Below are positions 31,195 to 52,652 of a stretch of 64,000 nucleotides of DNA, one piece after another. Within the stretch, counting starts at the first letter, position 1. Each line of letters begins with the position of its first letter. Origin of the DNA: Cirrosporium novae-zelandiae (lineage: Eukaryota); NCBI GenBank assembly GCA_026023565.1, contig JAPETS010000003.1, forward strand, positions 1,116,001-1,180,000, in the 5' to 3' direction. The notes beneath the pieces are model-generated. The model made no database searches. It worked only from the letters and a program-made list of their open reading frames with translations, and had not been told where the DNA came from. The translations under genes and the position numbers were made by a program.

Positions 31195-34100
31195 ATGCCA
31201 GGACGCGCATCCACCCGCTCAACACGATCGTCAACCTCCCGCGCGACTCGAAAATCCTCGGCCCAAACCTCTGGATCGCGCGCATCAACAAATTCTCGCC
31301 CGTCAGTTCCCTTGGTCGAAATTCCGGACGAGGGCCCTGAGACCTGGCTGCGGGCTCAGATATGCGCAATCTTTTCCGATGGGCAGCGAACGACTGCGGG
31401 ACATAGGAAACTTGCGATAAAGCTTCGGAATCTTCAGGAGAGATGCTGCTACGAGCTAACTGAGACCAAGGGGCCTAGTCCGGCGGACGAATTTGGGGAG
31501 GAGGATTTCAATACGGAGATTACGAGATGTGTGTTGCGCCTCTTGCCGATTCGGAAGAGTGAGAGTATTGGGGATAGGATGGTTAGGTTTTTGGGGTTCT
31601 TTTTGAAGTTTGCTTGCGATAGAGGTATGGGATATTTTTTATGCTGGTTGATTTGGTGAGGGCGAGGGCTAACATTTTGCGCTATAAAGATGCTGAACTT
31701 GTTCCTCAGGAGGATATTGATGATACTGGCGTATTTCCAGAAACACCCAGTACCCGCCTGACGACGAGTATACTATCGCTTCTACTACCACTACTTGGAT
31801 CGAAAGAAAAGGTTGTTCGCTATCGGGCTACCCAGATAATCTCTCATATTATCAATACTCTAGACTCAATCGACGATGAATACTACCATCTTTTACGGCT
31901 AGGACTTATGAAGCGAGTTCGTGACAGAGAGCCAATGATCCGTATTCAAGCAGTGCTTGGACTTGGGAGACTTGCAGGAAATGAGGCAGATGAAGGGGTT
32001 GAGAATGACGAAACTGAAGACGACACGAATGGCCTAACAGACAAACTACTCGAAATACTACAAAATGATCCAAGTGCTGAAGTACGGCGCTCGTTGTTGC
32101 TCAATCTCCCTCTAACGCCAGCGACCCTTCCATATCTGCTGGAAAGAGCAAGAGATATGGATCCCGCTACACGCCGCGCGTTATATTCTCGCCTCCTTCC
32201 TGCGCTCGGAGACTTTCGACATCTCTCGCTTTCTATGCGGGAGAAGCTCCTCCGATGGGGTCTTCGAGACCGAGATGAAAATGTGCGGAAAGCGGCCGGA
32301 AAGCTATTCCGGGAACGCTGGATCGAAGATTGTGTCGGGGCAAAGCAGGACCCCGAAGGGGAGGAGCAGCAAGATCAAACCCACAATGAGCATTTACCCG
32401 ACGTCAATGGCCTATTGGAACTCTTAGAGCGAATTGATGTTGTGAATTCAGGAGTCGAGGACGGAGTTGCTCTTGTTGCTATGAAACAATTCTGGGAAGG
32501 AAGACCAGATTACCGAGATGTTGTGTCCTTTGACGATACTTTCTGGAGGAATCTAACTGCCGAAAGTGTCTTTATGGTACGAACTCTGAATGATTTCTGC
32601 AGATATGAAGGCAATGGAAAATATGAAGCTCTGATTGAGGAGAAGTTGCCGGAGGTAACTAGATTTGCATTCTACCTCGAGGAGAGCGCTAATGCCCTCA
32701 TTACCATGCTTAGAAATGCACAGACAGCCGAAGAGGGAGAAGACGATACAGTTGAGAAGGAGTTCGTTGTTGAACAACTCCTTCAAATTGCACTTTCTCT
32801 TGATTACAGTGATGAAGTCGGAAGAAGGAAAATGTTTTCACTTACGCGGGAATTGCTGGCAGCACCTCTCCTACCAGACGAGATCACAAGGCTTGTTATA
32901 GAAGTATTGAGAGAGCTCTGTGGCCACGATCCTCGCGGAGAGGGCGATTTCTGCGGTGTTGTTCTTGAAGCTATTGCCGAAGTCCATGACACAATCGTTC
33001 CAGATGATGATGAAAGTTTTGTTTCTGCACGATCAGAGATCAGTGACGATCCAGTCAAGAGAGAACGACGGTCAAAGTCCAGGACCCCTGGACCTGATGG
33101 GAGTGGGGAAGAGGACGAAGCGGAGAGAGCGATGAGGGAGATCATGGTTAATATGAAGTGTCTCCACGTTGCGCAATGCATGCTACAGAATGTGGAAGGA
33201 AATCTTCAGGAGAACATGCATTTGGTCACCATGCTCAACAACTTAGTTGTCCCGGCTGTGAGAAGTCACGAGGCCCCTATCCGTGAACGAGGATTGCTAT
33301 GCCTTGGGCTCTGTTGCATGCTTGATAAAACTCTGGCTGAGGAAAACCTCACTCTTTTCCTCCACTGCTTCAACAAGGGCCACGAAGCGCTCCAGTGTGC
33401 CTCCCTTCAGGTTCTCTGCGACATCCTAGCCACCCACTCATCCCTTCTCACCATCCCACCGTCCGAGGACTCAGAAAGCTTCCAGGTCCAAAAGGCCGTC
33501 CATAAAGTCTTTATCAAGGCACTCAAAGCCACATCTTCCCCAGACGTTCAGGCTGCTGGCACAACGGCGCTCTGCAAACTCATGCTTCTGAATGTCATCA
33601 AAGAGGAAGACCTCCTTAAGGCCCTGATGGTCTCATTTTTTGACCCCAGTACTCAAGACAACGCCGAAGTCCGTCAAGCCCTGAGCTACTTTCTGCCTGT
33701 GTATTGCTATTCTCGACGCGAAAATATGGAACGCATGGGCAGAATTGGCGTGAATGTCATCCACAGCCTCATGCAAGTCAGTGAAGAGATGGACGATGAA
33801 GAAGAGATGGTGGGGATGCCCATGGTGGCTAATATGATTGTCGACTGGACCGACGCGCGAAAGCTGGTAGAGAAGACGGACGGTGTCATCATATGGGATG
33901 ATCAAGGGAAGCACGAAAGCAAGGGTCCGAACGGAGATGTGCATCTCGAACTTGCGCGAGACGTATTGGAGAAGGTCCTGGGAGGCAATTGTCCTAGTAA
34001 GTTTCCTGTTTTCCATATACCTTGATAGCAATTACCGTACTAATAGCCAACCACAGAAGAAGAAAAGAAATTCCTCATTTCTATGCTCGGCAAGCTATAC

Positions 34101-40937: not shown

Positions 40938-40945
40938 TATATAAA
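40938..40945 (+). promoter_or_regulatory. TATA box upstream of the EPTP-DUF5624-like locus
   Basis: TATATAAA about 115 bp before the ATG at 41059. Confidence 0.5.
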
Positions 40946-41058
40946 CATCTCCAGTGAAACTACACAACGAGATTAGAGCTTGCAAAAGTACACATTTAAC
41001 CCCACTCTCAATTCTAACACAAACCCCAGTTGTTATTACTTGCAATAGTACTTGCAGC

Positions 41059-43327
41059 ATGGCGACTATTAACCAAAAAAGTACTAATGGACTCCTCGAA
41101 CTTGTTCAATCCTTACTGACAACTGGTGCCCGGGCTGTAGACCCTTTCACAGTCAATGGTCTGCAGTATATTGCCATTCCTCAACTTGCGAAGGACATAC
41201 CAGACCAGCCAGTGGACATGACAAAAGGAGATTCGGACGTAAAAACACTCATCTTCAAGTTTAAAGAGAACAAATGGAAAATATGGCAACGGCTTCTTGT
41301 TAATGGAGGCGAGGATGCTGAGGTTTTTATCATTGGTGATCGGCAATTTCTTGCAACTGCTAGTTTTCGAGTGGGCAGTGATCCCTATGATCTTGATGTC
41401 GACTCGACCATTTTCGAATGGAAAGAGGGCGGATTTTATCCCTTTCAACAAATTCCTAGGTATGCGGCAAAGCAGTGCAGACATTTTGAGATCCAACAAC
41501 GTCATTTCCTCGCCCTAGCCCAAGGAGTTGTTATTGAGGGAGTCACTCGGAAGAACCCAGCAAAGTCCACCATATTCGAATGGGACGGTTCTTCTTTTGT
41601 TTCATTTCAAACGGTCACGTCTGCCTGGGGCTACAACTGGCTTCACTTTTGTTTAGCTGGTAGTCATTACCTTGCATACGCCGATCATGCCACACCAACC
41701 ATGATCTAGTGGGAGGGCATTCTGTTTCTTTGAAGCCAATAATGATGCATATCTCGCTTTTGCCAACCTTATGGACCGCACTTTGCTCTACCGATGGAGT
41801 GGGGAATGCTTCAACGTACACCAAACACTAAGCGGTCCTGGTGGTCGGGAATTTGCTATTTTCTACCAGGACACTGATTTGTATATGATACAAGTCAATT
41901 TCTTGACAGGTAGTGGAAGGGACCCTAACCCGACCCAGGAATCGGTCATTTATCGATTCCAAGGGGACAAATTGGTTATGGTGGATACCTTTACAACATC
42001 TGGAGCGACAGATGCTAAGGTCCTAGACCTTAATGGGAGGACGCTTGTTGCGGTTTCGGAGAGCATGACTGCTGAAGTCCACTTCAAAACTGACTCCCAT
42101 ATATTTCGATTGCTACCCTCCGCATCTACTACTCGTCCGAAGAGTAGGCGACCTTCAGTGTATCAAAACCTAGAGCTAGTGAACCTCTTTCATACTTACA
42201 CAGCAGGGTCAGATGGTATCGGAGCTCACTTAAGTAGTAGTACGTACAAACTCGGGCAGAAGATCCACTGTTAATCGCGACCGACACTGACATGGCTTTG
42301 TTCCGGGCGGCCACCAGAAGCCTTCATTTCAAGTTTTCGCCTATCCACCAAGGGCTTCAAGGAGCTCGCTGCGGTATTTCACCTTGGTCCGGCTATGGCC
42401 TCACTAGTAAGCATGCATACCTTAAATCCTATGGCGGACCTTTGGAGGAGCGATGTAGAAAGGCTCTTAAGGGCCACGGAGGAGGCAAGAAAGGTTAACA
42501 CAGCTTATCTTTGGTCCGATAAGATTGCAGTAGAGGCTTATCGCGGGCGTGAAGATGCAATCGCATCTATGATTGACTACGGTTGTGCAATTACGATTCG
42601 TTTTCTGGGCGCCGTTTTGGATGATTCTTCAAAGCTCAATGCGAAATTCTTACGTGAAGCGGTTCTTGAAGCAATATATCATTCACTCGGAGCATCGGTA
42701 CCTTTTAACTCTGTCATGATTGCCACCTTCTTCCTGACTGGCATGGACATTTCCTATCGTGCTACTGGTTGGCTAAACGACGAGAAAGTTGACTGGAGCC
42801 GAGCTATGGTATTGGTTTGCGGGAAACAGGGTCGTCCAACAAGTGGTGTCACCTAGACTACCAACTCTGTATGCCAGATAATTCGAGGTGCTTCTGGTGG
42901 GTTGCTGCCACTGGATCATATGTATATCGCACCACATGCCCCCAGCTTCAACATCGCAGATCTTAGAAATATTGATGCCATTCAAGCTTATGAGCAGCCA
43001 ATGCGCTCGTTATGATGCTACACACGTGCTATCGCCGAATCGGGTCCAATGATGTTCCAAGACTTCCCTCGATACGCACCTGAGTCGTTTTCTGCACCCG
43101 TCCTGAATGATGGTGTAAGTGAAGTTTCTGAAATGCCTCACATTCGTGGGCCTGATGATATGTTCACGATGACAACTCGCCTTCGTCTAGTCATGGAAGA
43201 CCTTCGTCAACTGCTCTCTGGGTGTGTTACAGATTATGCAATTGAGCAACTCGGCAGGAACAAGAACAATCCGGCAAGAGTCGTGGTTCCTGGCCTTGGT
43301 AATGTCACTTATACTGTGGGTCTTTAA
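41059..43327 (+). pseudogene. Intronless EPTP/EAR-repeat beta-propeller fused to a DUF5624-like domain; disrupted
   Basis: Seven repeats of the type xFxxxxxxYLAxA...SxIFxWxGxxFxxFQ across ORFs 40954..41709 and 41771..42274. C-terminal domain motifs FRLSTKGFKELAA, HLGPAMASL, NSVMIATFFL, GKQGRPTSGVT, YIAPHAP, RLRLVMEDLRQLLSGCV, VVVPGL. Lesions: deletion/frameshift ~41707, frameshifts 42255-42332, stops 42854-42856 and 43013-43015. Domain names are from recall. Confidence 0.75.
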
Positions 43328-43775: not shown

Positions 43776-46700
43776 ATGGCGAAGCGCAGGCTTAGTAGTG
43801 GATCCGATATATCGTTACCAAGAAAACGCTCGAAACCAAAACAAGGAGCTATCAACAACAATACCACGGATCTCCAGGACTCATACAGTGGGGACTCTCA
43901 GGAATACGCAGTGAAGAGCATACTTCAAGAAAAACGCAATAAATATTTGATTGCTTGGGAAGGAGGAAATCCAGAGACTGGAGAACCCTGGTCTCCTACT
44001 TGGGTAGGTATAAAATCCTCGTTGCGCTTTAAATGTGACCTAAAGTTTTATACCATCATTTCAGTACTCAATATAGTTTCCTGATTTCCTCTTTTCGTTC
44101 AGTATAATTCTTCGGTTTCAAAGCTTTGCTTATTTTGGAAACCTGTTGTATAGGAACCGAAAAGTAACGCCAACGAGCTTGCTGTCATTGATTGGCAGGA
44201 GAGACAGCAGCGTGCAAAAGCAACTCCCAAACGTCGCGGTAGGCCCCGCAAATCTGCCACTCCCGCAACTCAAACACCGCAAAGAGGACGCCAAAGGAAG
44301 TCAATTATTTCAGGAACTTCCCCAGTTTCAGAGATACAGGATAGCCACTCACAAACTGCTTCTGGACCTGGTAATCGTCCCCCATCACCTTTAGTACAGG
44401 TGACAAGAGACGGGAATTTTCACCAAAGTCAATATATTAACTATTCTTCACCACTTCCAACACAAGCGACTTCATTGCAGCAGCACGACACAGATTCGGC
44501 AATTGGAAGCTCTCCAGCAGAACATCTCCAAGAAACCCGCCCTCCAAGTTCTTTTGTCATTCCTGATTCACAGTCCCAACGCAATACAAGTAGTTATATT
44601 CCTGTCTCGAGTAATTCAGAAACTAACGCTATTTCCGCGTCAAATTACGGAGGTCTGAGTCAACCATTCCAATATCTGGGGAGTGGCACTGAACTAGTTG
44701 CCGGACAGACGCAGAGGTTTCAAACCCCTCTATATGCTGTGTACAGTGATCCGATCGAAGATTCATCAATTGCTGAAAAAATTCAAGCACCTAACCTACC
44801 TCTAAAACATCAAAGGGGGTTAGAATATTCGGACCAACGTACAAAAACTACCGAAGTGGCTGTGGCTATTGAAAACGAGACAGATAATAATATCCAGTCA
44901 GTTGAAGGTTTCGCTACTCAAGTGGATAATTTTTATACGTCTAATTGTGTAGAACTGGATTTGGATGCGGCCTTTAATCAAGCAGCTCCAATTACGTCTC
45001 AGATACCAGATACCTTGACTCGAGCGAGGCCTTCTACCCCATCAAATTCTAACAACATGGCGGATTTTCCAAGTCCAAATATCGAATCATCAAATTCCAC
45101 TCCAATTGGAGATAAACTTAAAAGAATGCGTGAGATGGTGCGTGCACGCTACAATTCTGGTATGGATACTACTACGTCATCTACATCTCTAACCGCACCT
45201 AAGAATGTTGACCAACCTCGGTCCCCTTCTCAGCCTTCAGGGTCAAGGATTGAGAACTCTACTGTCTCTCGCATATCTGATAATCACCGTTTGCAATCGC
45301 ACCTGCCAGCATCTCCGAGCAGGCTAGCATTCCATAGTGAGGTCTCACAGCCAATGGACTCTCAAACATCAGAGCAATCGGAACAAAAACCATTTCCTCG
45401 TCCACTTTTGGGTGAGATGGAGTTCATTGTTCCACTGCCAATGGATCCGCGCATACAAGACGAATACAAAAATTACATTATCCGTAATATGACCGCTATA
45501 CAACGCTTCTGCCTTGGGGATACGAGCCAGGACACTGATACCACCCCTATATATGTAAGCAACTTTGATTCTCTATTTGAAACATGCGTACTAACATAAA
45601 ACAGAGTCTTACAGCTACAATGGTTGACATGATTGACCATCTCCAGAATATTCTGTCTCATCGTGACCTCGATGATGAAGGCACCCAAACGCAAGATCGG
45701 GATTTGGATAGCGTTACAGCCACCTGGGCAGAATTTTGCAGCTCAAAGTTTAAGTTTCTATCGAGTTTTTTCAAAGAAGCGAAAGATCAAAGCCTAAACG
45801 TTGCTCTAATTGCGTCTCCAGGCAGATTGCTTGATATCATTGAGACATATCTGAGAGGGAAACGAGTTGATTATAGCCGCCCTGATAATCCTAGGCGACC
45901 GGACTCTGCTAAAGATCCTGGGCTATTGGCTACCTCTGAACCTCACCCGCATGTAACGCTTTTACCAACAGGCATGAATATACCCACGGAAGCAGAGTTG
46001 ATAATAGCATTTGACAGCTCATTTGATCCCGACGCTCCATCGATTAAAGATATACGCCGTCCATCTGCCAACTCACAGCTCTATCCCATAATTCGCCTGT
46101 TGATCGCCAATTCATACGAACATTTTGATGTCTGCCTATCAAAATCAATGGACAAGACCCAACGCCTCAGAGAGCTTGTTAGCCGCACAGCGCTATCAAG
46201 ACAGCGTGTGGGATTGCTTCCGGATGATGCGCCAACTCCGCAACAGGCTGGGTTAAAGGTTGCAGAGTTTATGGCGTCTGGCGGAAGTAGAATGAATTGG
46301 TCAATCCCGGAGATAGAGATGCTCAATTCCAACTCCGTTGAAACAGCAACCCAGCCCGATTCAATGGACAACTCGGTGGAATCTACCCAAAGTGGCACAG
46401 AGCAGATTTTGTCCATTGGGTTGAAGCGACCATTAGTATTTTTTCCTGTCTTGTATGTGAATGTGTCTAATTTTCTATTTAGGATCCTGAAATAGCAGAA
46501 CGCGACGTTTCATCTGCTAAAAAACCTCGCTCGAGCAGCGCAGACGCGGACGTAACGCATATTAGCGATTCCGCTAAAGACCTGTCATCTCAAATTGAAG
46601 ACCTCCGCACAGGACTCAAAGAATCCGAACAACGTCTTGCGGACGCTAAAAACAAGCACGCGGATCAGGTTTTGAATATGGAACAAACCATAAAGGCCAG

Positions 46701-48393: not shown

Positions 48394-49698
48394 ATGTCTG
48401 CGCCTAGTCCTACCCAGATCCTTAAACCCCTTCCTGCCTTTTATGGCTGTTACCTTCTCCGCTCCACCATACGACACGCTTCTCTCTACGTCGGTTCGAC
48501 ACCAAATCCCCTTCGAAGACTGAAGCAGCATAATGGCATTTCAAAAGGGGGAGCGATTCGGACGAGCAGGAAGACATTGAGACCTTGGGAGATGCTATGT
48601 ATTGTTCATGGTTTCCCAAGTAGTGTGGGGGCGCTACAGTTTGAGTACGCCTGATGTTGTAGCATTGGCTTTATTACGAATATCTATATATTTGGTGAAT
48701 ATCGATTGACAATACTATTTAGGTGGGCGTGGCAGCATTCGCATCTAACGCGGCACATTCCCGAAAAGCAACGTATTACAGCTCGGCTCACACGCACACG
48801 GGTTTCCCCTAGATCGGGAAAGACACGCAGACGTCCTACGAAGCCCCGTGATAGCCTCCCTGATCGTATTGCGAATCTTCATATACTCCTTCACGTCAAA
48901 TACTTTTCCAGGTGGCCCTTGGAGGTTAGGTTTTTCTCTGAAGATGGATGGAGGGTCTGGAAGAAATGGTGCGACGAGCATAGCGTGGGAAAGGACATTA
49001 GGGTAGTGAAGGACTTTAAGCCAAGTGAGGATGAAGGAAAGACAGAGGTAACTGCTAAGGATAGGGAGGAAGGAGAGAAGAGCTTGAATGAGAAGATCGA
49101 GGGAATTGATATTGAGTATGGAAGCTATAAATTATTTTTGGAGAAGAGCCAATTTTTGCTCGCTGAGGACGATCCACTATTTTGCAGCGTCTGTAAGGAT
49201 AGCATTGGTCCGGAGAGGAAATTAGTGATAGTATGCCCAGGTGAGGACTGTCGTTCCGCATTCCATGTGAAGTGTCTTGCCAGTACCTTTTTAAGGGGGC
49301 AGGACGATTTGCTTCCTATGACAGGATCTTGTCCATCCTGCAAGACAGAGATGGTCTGGGCAGATCTGATTAAGGAAATGACACTGAGAGCGCGTGGAGA
49401 AAAGGAGGTTCGGAAGTTATTCAAGAAGACAAGGGGACGAGCAAAACCTAAGGGGAACGCACCAGAGTTCACAGACGAGCGAGTAATTGCGGACAGCGAG
49501 GATGATTCCCAAACAGAATCGGAAGATGAGGGATTTCAGGCTGCTGATTTTTCTGATGCAAAAGTTGATCTCGATGATAGCTTGATGCCTACTCTGAATG
49601 AAAGTTCGACTTCAATGCTCAACTTCAAGCCAAGCCCGGTGAAATTTAAGCAGCCACCCTCTCTGATTATTGAGGATAGCGACGAAAGCTTAGAGTGA
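48394..49698 (+). CDS. SLX1: Structure-specific endonuclease subunit Slx1 (GIY-YIG plus RING/PHD-like zinc finger)
   Basis: [46 protein letters not shown] across the intron, CSVC..CPGEDC..HVKCL..CPSC. Confidence 0.93.
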
Positions 49699-50037: not shown

Positions 50038-50823
50038 CTACCCGAACGTTTTACTAGGATCGCTAGTATCACCGCCCTTAGTGTTTAAAGGGCCGAATTT
50101 CCTCAGTATTAGATTCCCTTGAATTGAACTGATGCAGTTCTTCGCAGCAGCTAGAACATCCATATTCACATCTTCCCACGGTCTTCCGGCATCAATAACT
50201 TTCATTTCATCATTCTCAGGCATCCTAACCAACGTATTGAAAAGCCGCCTAACTTCTTGTTGCATTTTATTATTTTCATATTTTTCGTCACCAAATCCTC
50301 CACGCTTAGCAGCAGCTTCTGGGGAAATATCCAGGAAAATGCATAGATCAGGTTTTGGTAAACCTACTTCGGGTTGCCAGGCCCATTGAAGGGAAAGCCG
50401 AGGATTTTGTTTTGCCGCAGAGTAGACGGCCCCCGAATATGAGTAACGATCGACCACAACATGAGTCCCGGCATTGATGAGATCAAGAATCCGAGAAAGG
50501 CGTTCCCATCTGTTTGCGGAAAATAGTAAATGGATGGCATGGTCGTCAACATGGTCCACTCCCTTTAGATATTTATTTATCACTTCTCCGATGTAGGTAG
50601 TTCTATCTACAACTGGTCAATATTGGTTCTAGGGTATCATAAGTAGAAAAAAACCCGAAATACCTGGAAAACGCATAGCAACGCCATCAATAACTTTTGC
50701 AAGCTCTTTAACCTGGGTTGATTTGCCCGCTCTATCCAGGCCTTCAATAACAATCAAGGCACCGCGACTTACGGTAGAAGTTTCAGAGTGATTGATTTGA
50801 TTATTTTCAAATTGCGAACTCAT
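50038..50823 (-). CDS. CDC8: Thymidylate kinase
   Basis: RGALIVIEGLDRAGKSTQ P-loop, RFP|DRTT across the intron, HLLFSANRWE, VVDRYSYSG, GLPKPD. Confidence 0.93.
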
Positions 50824-51096: not shown

Positions 51097-52652
51097 ATGG
51101 GTGATGCCATGGCAGATCCCAGTTCAACCAAGCTATCGGATGAAATGCTTTCTTTCAATATTCTTCAACCAGCAACAGAGGCTGTTAGTGTCCGCCTTGG
51201 TAAACTTTCTATCCCTGGACGAAAATCCATCTACACCCCTCACTATGTTGCAAATACTTCAAGGGGAGCTGTATCCCATATATCCCAAGATAATATAAGA
51301 AGCAAGACATCTATAAGCAGTGCATATTTTGCTATTGAAGACTGTAAGTATAGAACTGAGTTTTATATTTCCTTTCCGGCTACTTTTGTATATTAGCTCT
51401 GACTAGGGCTCACAAGTCATAGAAAAGGCACCATATCAGGTTCCCCCGATCTACAAATTCCCAGTTCAAAGTGGGGAATCTAGGTTAAGAAAGTTTATTA
51501 CCCTTCAACCAGATGTTGTGACTATATTGGGTCCTCGGCGTATACCTGCGATACCATGTCCACATCACAATACGAATACAGCCATCTCCATCTTGACCTC
51601 TGTTGGTTTTAGATGGCTAGAGGCTGAGGACTATCATGAAGGTTCCAGAACCTTGGGTCCGGATATCTTCATAGGTCTGGCCGATCTACCACAGGATGTT
51701 TATAAATCGAGTAAAAAGAGAAAGGAGAAAATGGTGGACAGGACAGATGACTGGATACAGACAATCTCCAGCGAACTTGCCGACGATAGCGTCGCGCAGA
51801 AGCCTGCATTATTCGCCCCTATCCTCCCACTTGAACCAGAACAGCAGTCCTACTACCTGGCTAACCTCCGCAACCTTCCCTATCTCTCTGGTCTTGCCCT
51901 CTTCAACTCGACCTCCACCACGACTATTCCAGTAGCGCTTCGTGACCTCCCTCGCCTTTCAGTTGCATCCCCTTCGTCTCCCCATGCCTTGCTCCATGAG
52001 ATCTCCCTTGGCGTTGACCTATCATTACTTCCGTTTATCACCACAGCCTCGGACTCTGGCATCGCCCTCTCATTCGCTTTTCCTGCCCCTGACCCTTCGC
52101 TCTTGTCCAAACCCATTCCCCTCGGAATTGACATGTGGTCTCCCGCACATGCCACGTCGATGACACCACTAACTCAGGGCTGTGATTGCTATGCTTGCAC
52201 AGCTCATCACTCTGCATATCTCCACCATCTCTTATCCGTAAAAGAAATGCTAGGCTGGGTATTACTGCAAATACATAACCATGCTGTTATGGACCGCTTT
52301 TTTGAAGGTGTAAGGAAAAGTATTGCGCATGGAACATTTGAGGAGGATATAAAAACATTTGGTCAGGTATATGAAGCCGAGTTTCCAGAAAAAACAGGGC
52401 AAGGTCCTCGGTGTGTTCAGTCCGGTTATTATAGTACCCCCACTCTTCGAATCTCAGCTAACTCTTTTTACCTTTTCCAGAGTTCGTGGCTACCAATTCA
52501 AGTCTATTGGTGGCGGTGAGCCGAAGAAGAATGTTCTTGCTTTTCGTACACTGGACGACACTAAAAATAAAGTAGCAGATGAAGGGATTCTAAGCCCTAA
52601 CGATGACGTCAAGTATTTAGATGAGCAAGGGATCACTGAGAAAATAAACTAG
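51097..52652 (+). CDS. QTRT2: Queuine tRNA-ribosyltransferase accessory subunit
   Basis: RLGKL..TPHYVANTSRGAVSHISQD, LADL, LGVDL, Zn site CDCYAC..H, YLHHLL..KEML..LLQIHN, GQGPR|VRGYQ; three exons. Confidence 0.85.

Follow-up and report, generated by a model that had tools for sequence, protein, structure and literature searches.

The window analysed here, 64,000 nucleotides from Cirrosporium novae-zelandiae (contig JAPETS010000003.1, positions 1,116,001 to 1,180,000), carries on its plus strand, at 41059-43327 in window numbering, a broken gene that joins an EPTP/EAR-type beta-propeller to a DUF5624-type protein. The best explanation, which we consider probable, is that this element is the decayed copy of a fungal EPTP-DUF5624 fusion that came from a bacterial operon, and that the proteins of this family would have a catabolic role in the cytosol. 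The original prediction for this stretch, made from its letters, had proposed that two functionally coupled bacterial genes were acquired and fused in a fungal lineage, marking a two-protein module.

The gene is spread over five abutting open stretches (plus strand, 40945-43327; Table 1). In Pfam, the first holds four EPTP stretches (PF03736 on 41059-41706; E 7.4e-26, 90.4 bits) and the second holds three more (41705-42271; E 5.1e-15, 55.7 bits), seven repeats in sum, and the third matches DUF5624 (PF18538 on 42275-42853; E 5.4e-44, 149.8 bits); both families stand above their cut-offs of 21 and 25, respectively. The final two fragments (42857-43015 and 43016-43327) match no Pfam family and align with the C-terminal part of bacterial DUF5624 proteins. 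The read-through translation of the window gene, with X at the stops (P0001), served as the query against the protein collection, and its homology with bacterial proteins is collinear along the whole 2.27 kb span. This collinearity bears out the prediction that the five open reading frame (ORF) fragments are one gene, and because it extends across the entire span the term intronless is correct. The seven EPTP/EAR repeats that had been seen in the N-terminal half, and the DUF5624 identity that had been proposed from motifs in the C-terminal half, agree with the Pfam matches, and the linker said to join the propeller to the second domain could be located. No signal peptide had been noticed, and the N-terminus, MATINQKSTNGLLELVQSLLTTGARAV, indeed leads directly into blade 1 and shows no hydrophobic leader when judged by eye, with no signal-peptide predictor applied.

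Table 1. Features of the window: the EPTP-DUF5624 gene, its lesions and flanking genes
Feature	Position	Strand	Remarks
Open stretch	40945-41709	+	frame 1
Open stretch	41705-42274	+	frame 2
Open stretch	42275-42856	+	frame 2
Open stretch	42857-43015	+	frame 2
Open stretch	43016-43327	+	frame 2
ATG start, EPTP blades 1-3 and first half of blade 4	41059..41706	+	frame 1; Pfam EPTP; 54% identity to residues 16-227 of the fused bacterial protein P0003
Lesion 1	41707	+	loss of about 17 codons that make up blade 4's second half, with a frameshift from 1 to 2; frame-1 TAG at 41707-41709
EPTP blades 5-7	41708..42115	+	frame 2; Pfam EPTP; aligned with P0003 residues 236-375
Linker PSASTTRPKSRRPS between the two halves	42116..42157	+	sits at the position of the bacterial stop/start junction
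DUF5624-type protein, beginning (YQNLELVNLF...YKLG)	42161..42256	+	frame 2; aligned with bacterial P0012 from about residue 40
Intron-like stretch, 78 nt (GTACGT...ACTGAC...CAG)	42240..42317	+	spans lesions 2-3; skipped in the deposited model (P0002 joins ...GAHLSS to KAFISSF...)
Lesion 2	near 42256	+	1-nt loss
Lesion 3	near 42304	+	loss of about 8 nt
DUF5624 Pfam region and helices after it	42302..42853	+	frame 2; Pfam E 5.4e-44; this fragment against 4jx2_A, E 1.5e-15
Lesion 4	42854..42856	+	TAG in place of the homologs' Trp (GVTWTTNS)
Lesion 5	43013..43015	+	TGA in place of the homologs' Trp (LRSLWFYTRA)
DUF5624-type protein, C-terminal part	43016..43327	+	ends ...TYTVGL then TAA, the same end as the bacterial proteins
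Condensin Cnd3	31623-34022
HDA2-3	45581-46492
SLX1	48655-49695
Thymidylate kinase	50038-50613
Queuine tRNA-ribosyltransferase	51407-52516

The search with P0001 returned 419 proteins at E <= 0.001; among the best 120, 111 carry DUF5624 only (304-451 aa, 48-61% identity over about 70% of the query) and the other nine have EPTP and DUF5624 together. One genome from each prokaryotic species was then scanned by alignment, which yielded 250 relatives, and the best 80 loci were used for counts (an earlier pattern-based scan of bacterial genomes with P0005, a bacterial fusion, gave 28 matches, none of them a relative). Queried by tblastn with propeller halves taken from five fused proteins, 74 of these 80 loci showed an EPTP reading frame immediately upstream of DUF5624 and on its strand. 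Two of the other six have no upstream DNA and four have no propeller within reach; the genomes of two of these four have EPTP genes elsewhere, one of them in a second adjacent pair. The adjacent genes are separate ORFs in 74/74 pairs (0/74 are one ORF), with junctions of a few to some tens of bases or with overlaps, which suggests translational coupling in bacteria. The holders are Comamonadaceae, Streptomyces, Pseudonocardiaceae, other Actinomycetota, Acidobacteriaceae, Ktedonobacteraceae, Gemmatimonadaceae, Rhodospirillales, Hyphomicrobiales, and one Melainabacteria metagenome-assembled genome (MAG). The halves of the fungal gene are found here as separate, adjacent, and co-oriented genes, and an alpha/beta-hydrolase (ABH) is collinear with them in 25/81 loci, the Rosetta-stone pattern of an operon-derived fusion. 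The EPTP-DUF5624(-ABH) operons of Variovorax, Streptomyces, Pseudonocardia, Granulicella, Ktedonobacteraceae, Rhodospirillales, Gemmatimonadaceae, and others encode the same two or three proteins in the same order, with 54-60% identity to each half of the window reading, but they differ from the window gene in being intact, separate ORFs that lie amid an aldolase and a lactonase, or next to the hydrolase. Most of the bacterial partners have no leader, and their reading frames begin a few residues from the conserved core. In a Hyphomicrobiales MAG, the propeller (L001:913-2145) and the DUF5624 protein (L001:2142-3464) each have their own twin-arginine leader (SRRDVF... and TRRDFL...); this pair looks like a periplasmic variant and adjoins an AraC gene, Rieske oxygenase subunits, and an FAD hydroxylase.

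The genes around the pair were counted by tblastn over 81 loci (the 80 above and L081, a metagenome contig), with ORFs in high-GC loci found by GC3-weighted calling. An HpcH/HpaI aldolase is present at 44/81 loci (41 on the same strand), an Amidohydro_2 protein at 45/81 (42 on the same strand), a LysR regulator at 33/81 (4 on the same strand, mostly divergent), and an ABH at 25/81, on the same strand in all 25 and starting within tens of bases after DUF5624. The ABH type and the amidohydrolase/aldolase type are mutually exclusive, save for L059. Further neighbours include TctC, major facilitator superfamily (MFS), and LIV-type ABC transporters, porins, TonB-dependent receptors, isochorismatase-family and BD-FAE hydrolases, and GntR/TetR regulators; UbiD is found in L002, and the Rieske oxygenase and FAD hydroxylase in L001. 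The closest NCBIfam family is 4-sulfomuconolactone hydrolase for the amidohydrolase (192.7 bits, curated cut-off 500) and 3-oxoadipate enol-lactonase PcaD for the ABH (85.6 bits, curated cut-off 255.85), and the aldolase is closest to HpaI, GarL, and rhamnonate aldolases, again below the curated cut-offs. Because all of these scores are far below the cut-offs, the substrates of the neighbours would differ from those of the named enzymes. The best likenesses fall in muconate/muconolactone-type and sugar-acid lactone pathways (cycloisomerase or oxidase, lactone hydrolase, class II pyruvate aldolase), whereas neither EPTP nor DUF5624 resembles any known enzyme of these pathways. Behind the pair in Granulicella (L004:11188-13203) come malate synthase and a GlcG/HbpS-like gene, which suggests glyoxylate as one product of the pathway there. 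The pair sits with a lactone or ester hydrolase, with a class II pyruvate aldolase in over half of the loci, and with uptake systems and a regulator. With a lactone hydrolase, an aldolase, transporters, and LysR around it, the pair has a metabolic context, and this limits the types of system that it may be.

The fused forms were collected with the Oidiodendron protein as query, restricted to proteins of 435-1386 aa. This gave 38 matches at E <= 1e-10, comprising 34 proteins with both EPTP and DUF5624, one with MFS and EPTP, and three fish TSPEAR proteins. Among the 34 long fused forms, 22 add ABH domains (about 1070-1184 aa, plus a 915-aa Xylariales protein) and 12 do not. Named fungal holders include Oidiodendron maius, Fusarium albosuccineum, Diatrype stigma, Clonostachys byssicola, Kalmusia sp., Talaromyces proteolyticus, Cladobotryum mycophilum, Trichoderma virens, Penicillium lagena, Cladophialophora immunda, Rhinocladiella similis, Zarea fungicola, Xylariales sp. 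PMI_506, and, from the search with P0001, one whose name reads only 'Hapsidospo...'. They are scattered single species over several Pezizomycotina classes, with Hypocreales in two subclades, and not the broad vertical spread that would speak against transfer. In the Xylariales protein the order EPTP, DUF5624, hydrolase is the bacterial gene order, and the hydrolase tail of the Talaromyces protein is 50% identical over 272 aa to the ABH downstream of the pair in Streptomyces. All of the fungal homologs that we read lack a leader sequence. They are annotated as open proteins of 770-1107 aa, many with the hydrolase domain, whereas the window copy is broken and has no hydrolase part: no ABH remnant was found downstream of the gene by tblastn or with a profile hidden Markov model built from 21 ABH tails. 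Within the window we also found no second copy of the gene and none of the operon neighbours (aldolase, amidohydrolase, ABH, and others).

Fused forms exist in bacteria as well. They include a 754-aa RefSeq protein from Variovorax sp. Sphag1AA, P0062, which nests among Actinomycetota, and P0003 (769 aa, GTG start), which lies on L081 with overlapping ORFs for a GntR regulator, a TonB-type receptor, a 433-aa protein, an HpcH aldolase, and an Amidohydro_2 protein. Just downstream of the fused gene on this contig (L081:12132-14335) are a serine recombinase (Resolvase/Recombinase) and a RES-domain gene, which hint at the border of a mobile element. Two contigs in the 90% cluster of P0005 encode, in place of a single protein, pieces of 286 aa and 484 aa that sum to 770 (P0126/P0132 and P0129/P0134); as the break falls inside the propeller and not at the domain border, some bacterial copies look broken too. 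P0168 (798 aa) combines MFS/sugar-transporter Pfam domains with EPTP at 43% identity to the fungal propeller half, and may be a further fusion or a merge by the gene caller. P0177, P0178, P0198, P0217, P0220, and P0259 (1185-3096 aa) contain up to eight stretches that match the propeller half at 32-36% identity, and EPTP-type propellers therefore also exist in giant multi-propeller proteins.

The conserved pairing gives the prediction of two functionally coupled genes its genomic half: the two proteins are co-inherited, co-oriented, and abutting, and have been fused several times independently, and we infer their joint action from this. The phrase two-protein module fits the 74 adjacent pairs; however, the system is often three-part, with the ABH following the pair in 25/81 loci and fused to it in 22 of the 34 long forms. 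The expectation that the bacterial halves should be neighbours, failing which the proposal would have fallen, agrees with these counts.

Phylogenetic trees were used to ask where the window gene belongs. In a 108-row FastTree of the C half, 31 rows form the main fungal clade (100, starred) and the window is unresolved among bacterial rows outside that clade. For IQ-TREE we halved the 108 rows to a 54-row set, mainly by removing near-duplicates from Streptomyces, Variovorax, and fungi. Quick IQ-TREE runs recovered for the C half the main fungal clade (13 rows, 100) and the Xylariales group (3 rows, 100), with the window beside L002/L003 at 88, and for the N half joined every fungal row, including the window, at 94. 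With the two halves concatenated (54 rows x 768 columns) and a careful IQ-TREE analysis (LG+C20+F+G4 by posterior mean site frequencies), the 17 fungal rows are one clade (99/98), which contains the double and triple fusions of Xylariales sp. PMI_506, Oidiodendron maius, Talaromyces proteolyticus, Trichoderma virens, Cladophialophora immunda, and others together with the window. The nearest kin of the window are the Xylariales sp. PMI_506 group (98/91), and the sister to the fungi is made up of the split bacterial pairs L001-L005 (92/92). Over the 5-95% range of bootstrap trees, 3 origins are required for the fused forms of bacteria, and the fusion is not peculiar to fungi, with at least three separate bacterial fusions. 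Because the fungal clade attaches inside bacterial diversity, the bacterial spread is far wider, and operons precede fusions logically, we read the direction as probably bacteria to fungi, and the transfer of the module that the prediction proposed appears largely right.

Where the fusion took place is less settled. It is likely that it happened in the fungal lineage, as originally predicted, and the adjoining split bacterial pairs agree with this part of the prediction. The other possibility, which we hold to be clearly the lesser one while still giving it some weight, is that the fusion had been made in a bacterium beforehand and reached fungi as one gene, resembling P0003/P0005 or the Variovorax sp. 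Sphag1AA protein. Such bacterial fusions exist, and the approximately unbiased (AU) test does not reject a clade of fungi and P0003/P0005 (p 0.441, log-likelihood 1.47 lower). The best tree speaks for the fungal lineage in placing the split pairs as sister, no fused form of about 1000 aa or more lies outside the fungal clades of the 108-row tree, the sister bacteria L002 and L003 keep the hydrolase as a separate downstream gene, and the operon of P0003 is of the aldolase/amidohydrolase type without that hydrolase. Within the main clade of the 108-row FastTree, the double fusions group as a single subclade (100, starred) nested among triple fusions, so by parsimony the fungal ancestor was a triple fusion. 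The hydrolase part was then probably lost at least three times in fungi: in the double-fusion subclade, in P0004/P0124, and in the window. The history we favour would therefore be that an EPTP-DUF5624 operon (often with ABH), or a fused version of it, entered the ancestor of several Pezizomycotina lineages once, by a likely route in which only read-through fusions allow the downstream reading frames to be translated in a eukaryote; that the ancestral form was probably the triple fusion, which later lost its hydrolase part several times, including in the window lineage; and that the remainder of the fused gene would now be decaying there.

This decay is seen in five lesions within 2.3 kb, three indels and two Trp-to-stop changes, read against full-length homologs. 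At lesion 1 the window reads ...YADHATPTMI (ending at 41706) and then SGRAFCFF, and about 17 residues stand between the two in all homologs (LRWNGSAFESFQILDGA in P0003); the prediction had listed the fourth repeat as incomplete, and the second half of blade 4 is indeed missing. Between lesions 2 and 3, 16 conserved codons, AEDPLLIATDTDMALF, are readable only in frame 1 (the frame-1 ORF spans 42241-42498), frame 2 meets a TAA at 42272-42274, and the homologs read A.DPLIVATGTDMAIF across the segment. The gene has no single uninterrupted frame and no frames that true introns could join. Its deposited translation, P0002 (574 aa, 'MAG: hypothetical protein M1834_005089 [Cirrosporium novae-zelandiae]'), is identical to the window translation in every kept segment; this gene model skips lesions 1-4 and terminates at lesion 5. 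Its 'introns' would delete the whole of blade 4, a pair of core beta-strands that hold near-invariant residues, and some of a conserved helix region, and its end at the TGA costs the last 104 conserved residues. Because the candidate introns contain conserved coding sequence, we take the breaks between the fragments to be lesions; for the same reason the stretch at 42240-42317, which in a different frame codes for conserved core strands, is no true intron. Near-consensus fungal splice signals lie exactly over this doubly frameshifted segment, perhaps by chance, or perhaps as a damaged piece that can be spliced out. Columns conserved in all but at most two of the 108 rows were taken as near-invariant, and the window has changed 1/53 of these in the N half and 1/49 in the C half; with so few changed, we read the inactivation as recent. 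The window copy is most likely a recently inactivated pseudogene, a conclusion that had not been drawn when the fragments were first, and correctly, seen. Repeat-induced point mutation (RIP) was considered as the origin of the stops and rejected: RIP raises TpA/ApT above about 0.89 and lowers (CpA+TpG)/(ApC+GpT) below about 1.03, and the indices of the gene (0.74 and 1.25) equal those of the whole window (0.76 and 1.26).

An intact and functional gene, with its lesions being assembly errors of the MAG or being bridged by real introns as in the 574-aa model, is in our view unlikely. The small number of changed near-invariant columns fits it, and the 42240-42317 stretch combines good splice signals of the fungal type with a length that is a multiple of three. 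It would need, however, five separate lesions of three kinds inside 2.3 kb, two of them plain substitutions in Trp codons, and introns that cut conserved coding sequence in a model that gives up the conserved C-terminus.

Structural comparisons, which the prediction had recommended, returned a closest solved structure for each half. An AlphaFold2 (AF2) model of a Variovorax DUF5624 protein from a 79-row alignment has a predicted local distance difference test (pLDDT) of 92.8 and a predicted template modelling score (pTM) of 0.90, and the only Foldseek match at E <= 0.001 is 4jx2 (E ~1e-15). A wide search with VIA gave 4jx2 with Z 33.1 (370 of 400 residues aligned, root mean square deviation (rmsd) 3.7), and the DUF5624 profile against the PDB found 4jx2 alone (2e-43). 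ASKHA and RuvC-like folds were rejected (Foldseek probability 0.3 or less), as was a four-helix bundle relation, for which there were generic matches only (Z 9.1 or less, residues 67-205, the Pfam region). Pfam found no family besides DUF5624 on 40 family members, and an ESM Atlas search for relatives gave no usable match. The 4jx2 entry, the one solved relative of the C-terminal half, is Legionella pneumophila lpg1979, a structural-genomics 'putative secreted protein' and the founder of DUF5624; it differs from the present proteins in its identity of about 20% and in its annotation as secreted. We know of no function for lpg1979 or for the DUF5624-type partner, and a literature search without subscription journals found no publication on DUF5624, 4JX2, or lpg1979.

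The model of the natural fusion P0003 (AF2, 92-row alignment) has a pLDDT of 93.1 and a pTM of 0.59, from which the domains are firm but their mutual placement is not, and no interface can be claimed. The best match of its propeller is the EPTP domain of human LGI1 (E 6.8e-17, TM 0.84, rmsd 3.1 A, 15% identity), and the next unrelated propellers follow at E 1e-8 or worse, about eight orders of magnitude behind. The seven-bladed LGI1-like fold is thus a property of the P0003 model and not of the window's own protein, in which blade 4 is half deleted. A complex prediction for the L002 pair scored 0.00, with alignments unused and the partner fold uncertain, and is evidence neither way. In the bacterial propeller family many polar residues are invariant; they belong to motifs that differ from blade to blade and stand where each blade begins (SGARA, GGEDAE, AAKQW, WGYNW, GRAF, GxREF, and GxTD, with conserved polar residues on the central face of the propeller). 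The bacterial DUF5624 family has invariant polar residues that include several Arg, Glu, and Asp and one His; in both families these would fit enzymes or a shared active site.

To the best of our knowledge, EPTP/EAR repeats are known only from animal neuronal and sensory proteins, and we know of no protein ligand for the present propeller. It shares with LGI1, TSPEAR, and ADGRV1 the seven Pfam EPTP repeats and the LGI1-like model of the fused bacterial homolog, and fish TSPEAR proteins match the Oidiodendron protein weakly (E 1e-18 to 2e-30). The animal proteins, in contrast, are extracellular and have leucine-rich repeat, laminin-G, or G-protein-coupled receptor partners, whereas here the partner is DUF5624, there is no signal peptide, and the bacterial genes lie in catabolic operons. 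That the propeller is secreted and binds a ligand as in these animal proteins, with DUF5624 as an accessory, is very unlikely: Pfam EPTP, the LGI1 fold, the twin-arginine leaders of the Hyphomicrobiales variant, and the title of the lpg1979 entry would suit it, but neither the window protein, the fungal homologs, nor most bacterial partners have a leader, the operons are cytoplasmic and catabolic, and the identity to LGI1 is merely 15%. Databases record the architecture by domain labels and do not interpret it, and no publication on EPTP in fungi and bacteria was found by title or abstract in a search without subscription journals.

The flanks of the gene are those of an ordinary fungal locus. 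Cirrosporium belongs to the Xylobotryomycetes (Pezizomycotina), and the surrounding ORFs encode condensin Cnd3, a RanBP-zinc-finger/RRM protein, HDA2-3, SLX1, thymidylate kinase, queuine tRNA-ribosyltransferase (TGT), a DUF829 protein, and a zinc alcohol dehydrogenase. The surroundings of the pseudogene are housekeeping genes, with no catabolic cluster. Composition is even over the window. Contamination of the assembly by bacterial DNA, for which one might cite the 56-60% identity with bacterial proteins, the lack of introns, and the metagenomic origin, can be set aside with near certainty, given eukaryotic housekeeping genes on both sides, a GC content of 0.47 for the gene against 0.456 for the window, the grouping with named fungal genomes at 99/98, and a fused gene where all 74 bacterial pairs are split. 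We give equally little credence to an anti-phage defence or toxin-antitoxin-like two-gene system, which the tight coupling and patchy distribution of the cassette and the recombinase, RES-domain, and PIN genes near two copies might evoke, as the conserved neighbours are an aldolase, a lactonase, transporters, and LysR/GntR/TetR regulators and no PADLOC model matches any of the four proteins tried (0 families), an absence that by itself leaves a defence role possible.

What the intact proteins do can be approached from their neighbours. The ABH and the amidohydrolase replace each other and are both lactone/ester hydrolases, which is the basis of our mechanistic guess. The EPTP and DUF5624 proteins would be a cytosolic enzyme pair, in the simplest case a heterodimer, that takes part in breaking down an imported organic acid, and their substrate or product would be a lactone or ester. 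The lactone would be opened by the neighbour, either an Amidohydro_2 protein of the sulfomuconolactone-hydrolase type or an ABH of the enol-lactonase type, and the opened product may be split by the HpcH/HpaI aldolase into pyruvate and an aldehyde. Because the neighbours are PcaD-like, sulfomuconolactone-hydrolase-like, and HpaI-like and include UbiD, the Rieske oxygenase, and the FAD hydroxylase, we lean slightly toward a ring-cleavage-type route, in which the imported acid would be aromatic-derived, over a sugar-acid route. A bolder suggestion, which we offer as tentative and rather improbable, is that EPTP-DUF5624(-ABH) is an unrecognised multi-step catabolic enzyme whose propeller, a fold known to date only as a protein-binding module outside animal cells, is itself catalytic or holds the substrate. 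It might carry out a lactone-forming or ring-opening step on an aromatic-derived acid and pass the product to the fused or adjacent lactonase.

Several observations count against this account of a transferred, fused, catabolic, and now decayed gene. The lesions are known from one metagenome-assembled sequence, and the single sequencing run that a search turned up, with no RNA run listed beside it, may be the source of that assembly; so few changes in conserved columns would also suit an intact, badly assembled gene. The tree of the C half alone puts the window with L002/L003 and not with the fungi (88 by the Shimodaira-Hasegawa-like approximate likelihood ratio test, SH-aLRT; not starred), the AU test tolerates the fused bacterial donor, and the root of the tree was not inferred, so that the direction of transfer depends on nesting, taxonomic breadth, and operon logic. 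On the side of function, 12/81 loci have neither lactonase type within reach, some Streptomyces genomes have unlinked EPTP and DUF5624 genes, neither half yielded a recognised catalytic fold or motif by Foldseek, VIA, PDB profile, Pfam, or ESM Atlas, and the model of P0003, with a pTM of just 0.59, does not place the two halves firmly against each other.

As the locus itself appears to be a dead gene, the value of these findings lies in the family rather than in the window copy. Two domains of uncharted role emerge as a conserved and repeatedly fused pair with a clear genomic setting, namely catabolic operons in bacteria of soil, peat, and lichens, and fusions of two or three parts in scattered fungi of soil and wood. 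This makes their function testable in common laboratory strains and gives DUF5624/lpg1979 its first functional lead. In the history proposed here, a clean case of its kind, an operon would have become one eukaryotic gene that was later subject to loss, and the window would show that loss under way. If the pair does act as one, the repeated independent fusions, at least three in bacteria and one in fungi, would mark an obligate complex. If the propeller were catalytic, this would be the first enzymatic role for the fold, and an epilepsy-linked animal domain would be rooted in a bacterial metabolic protein.

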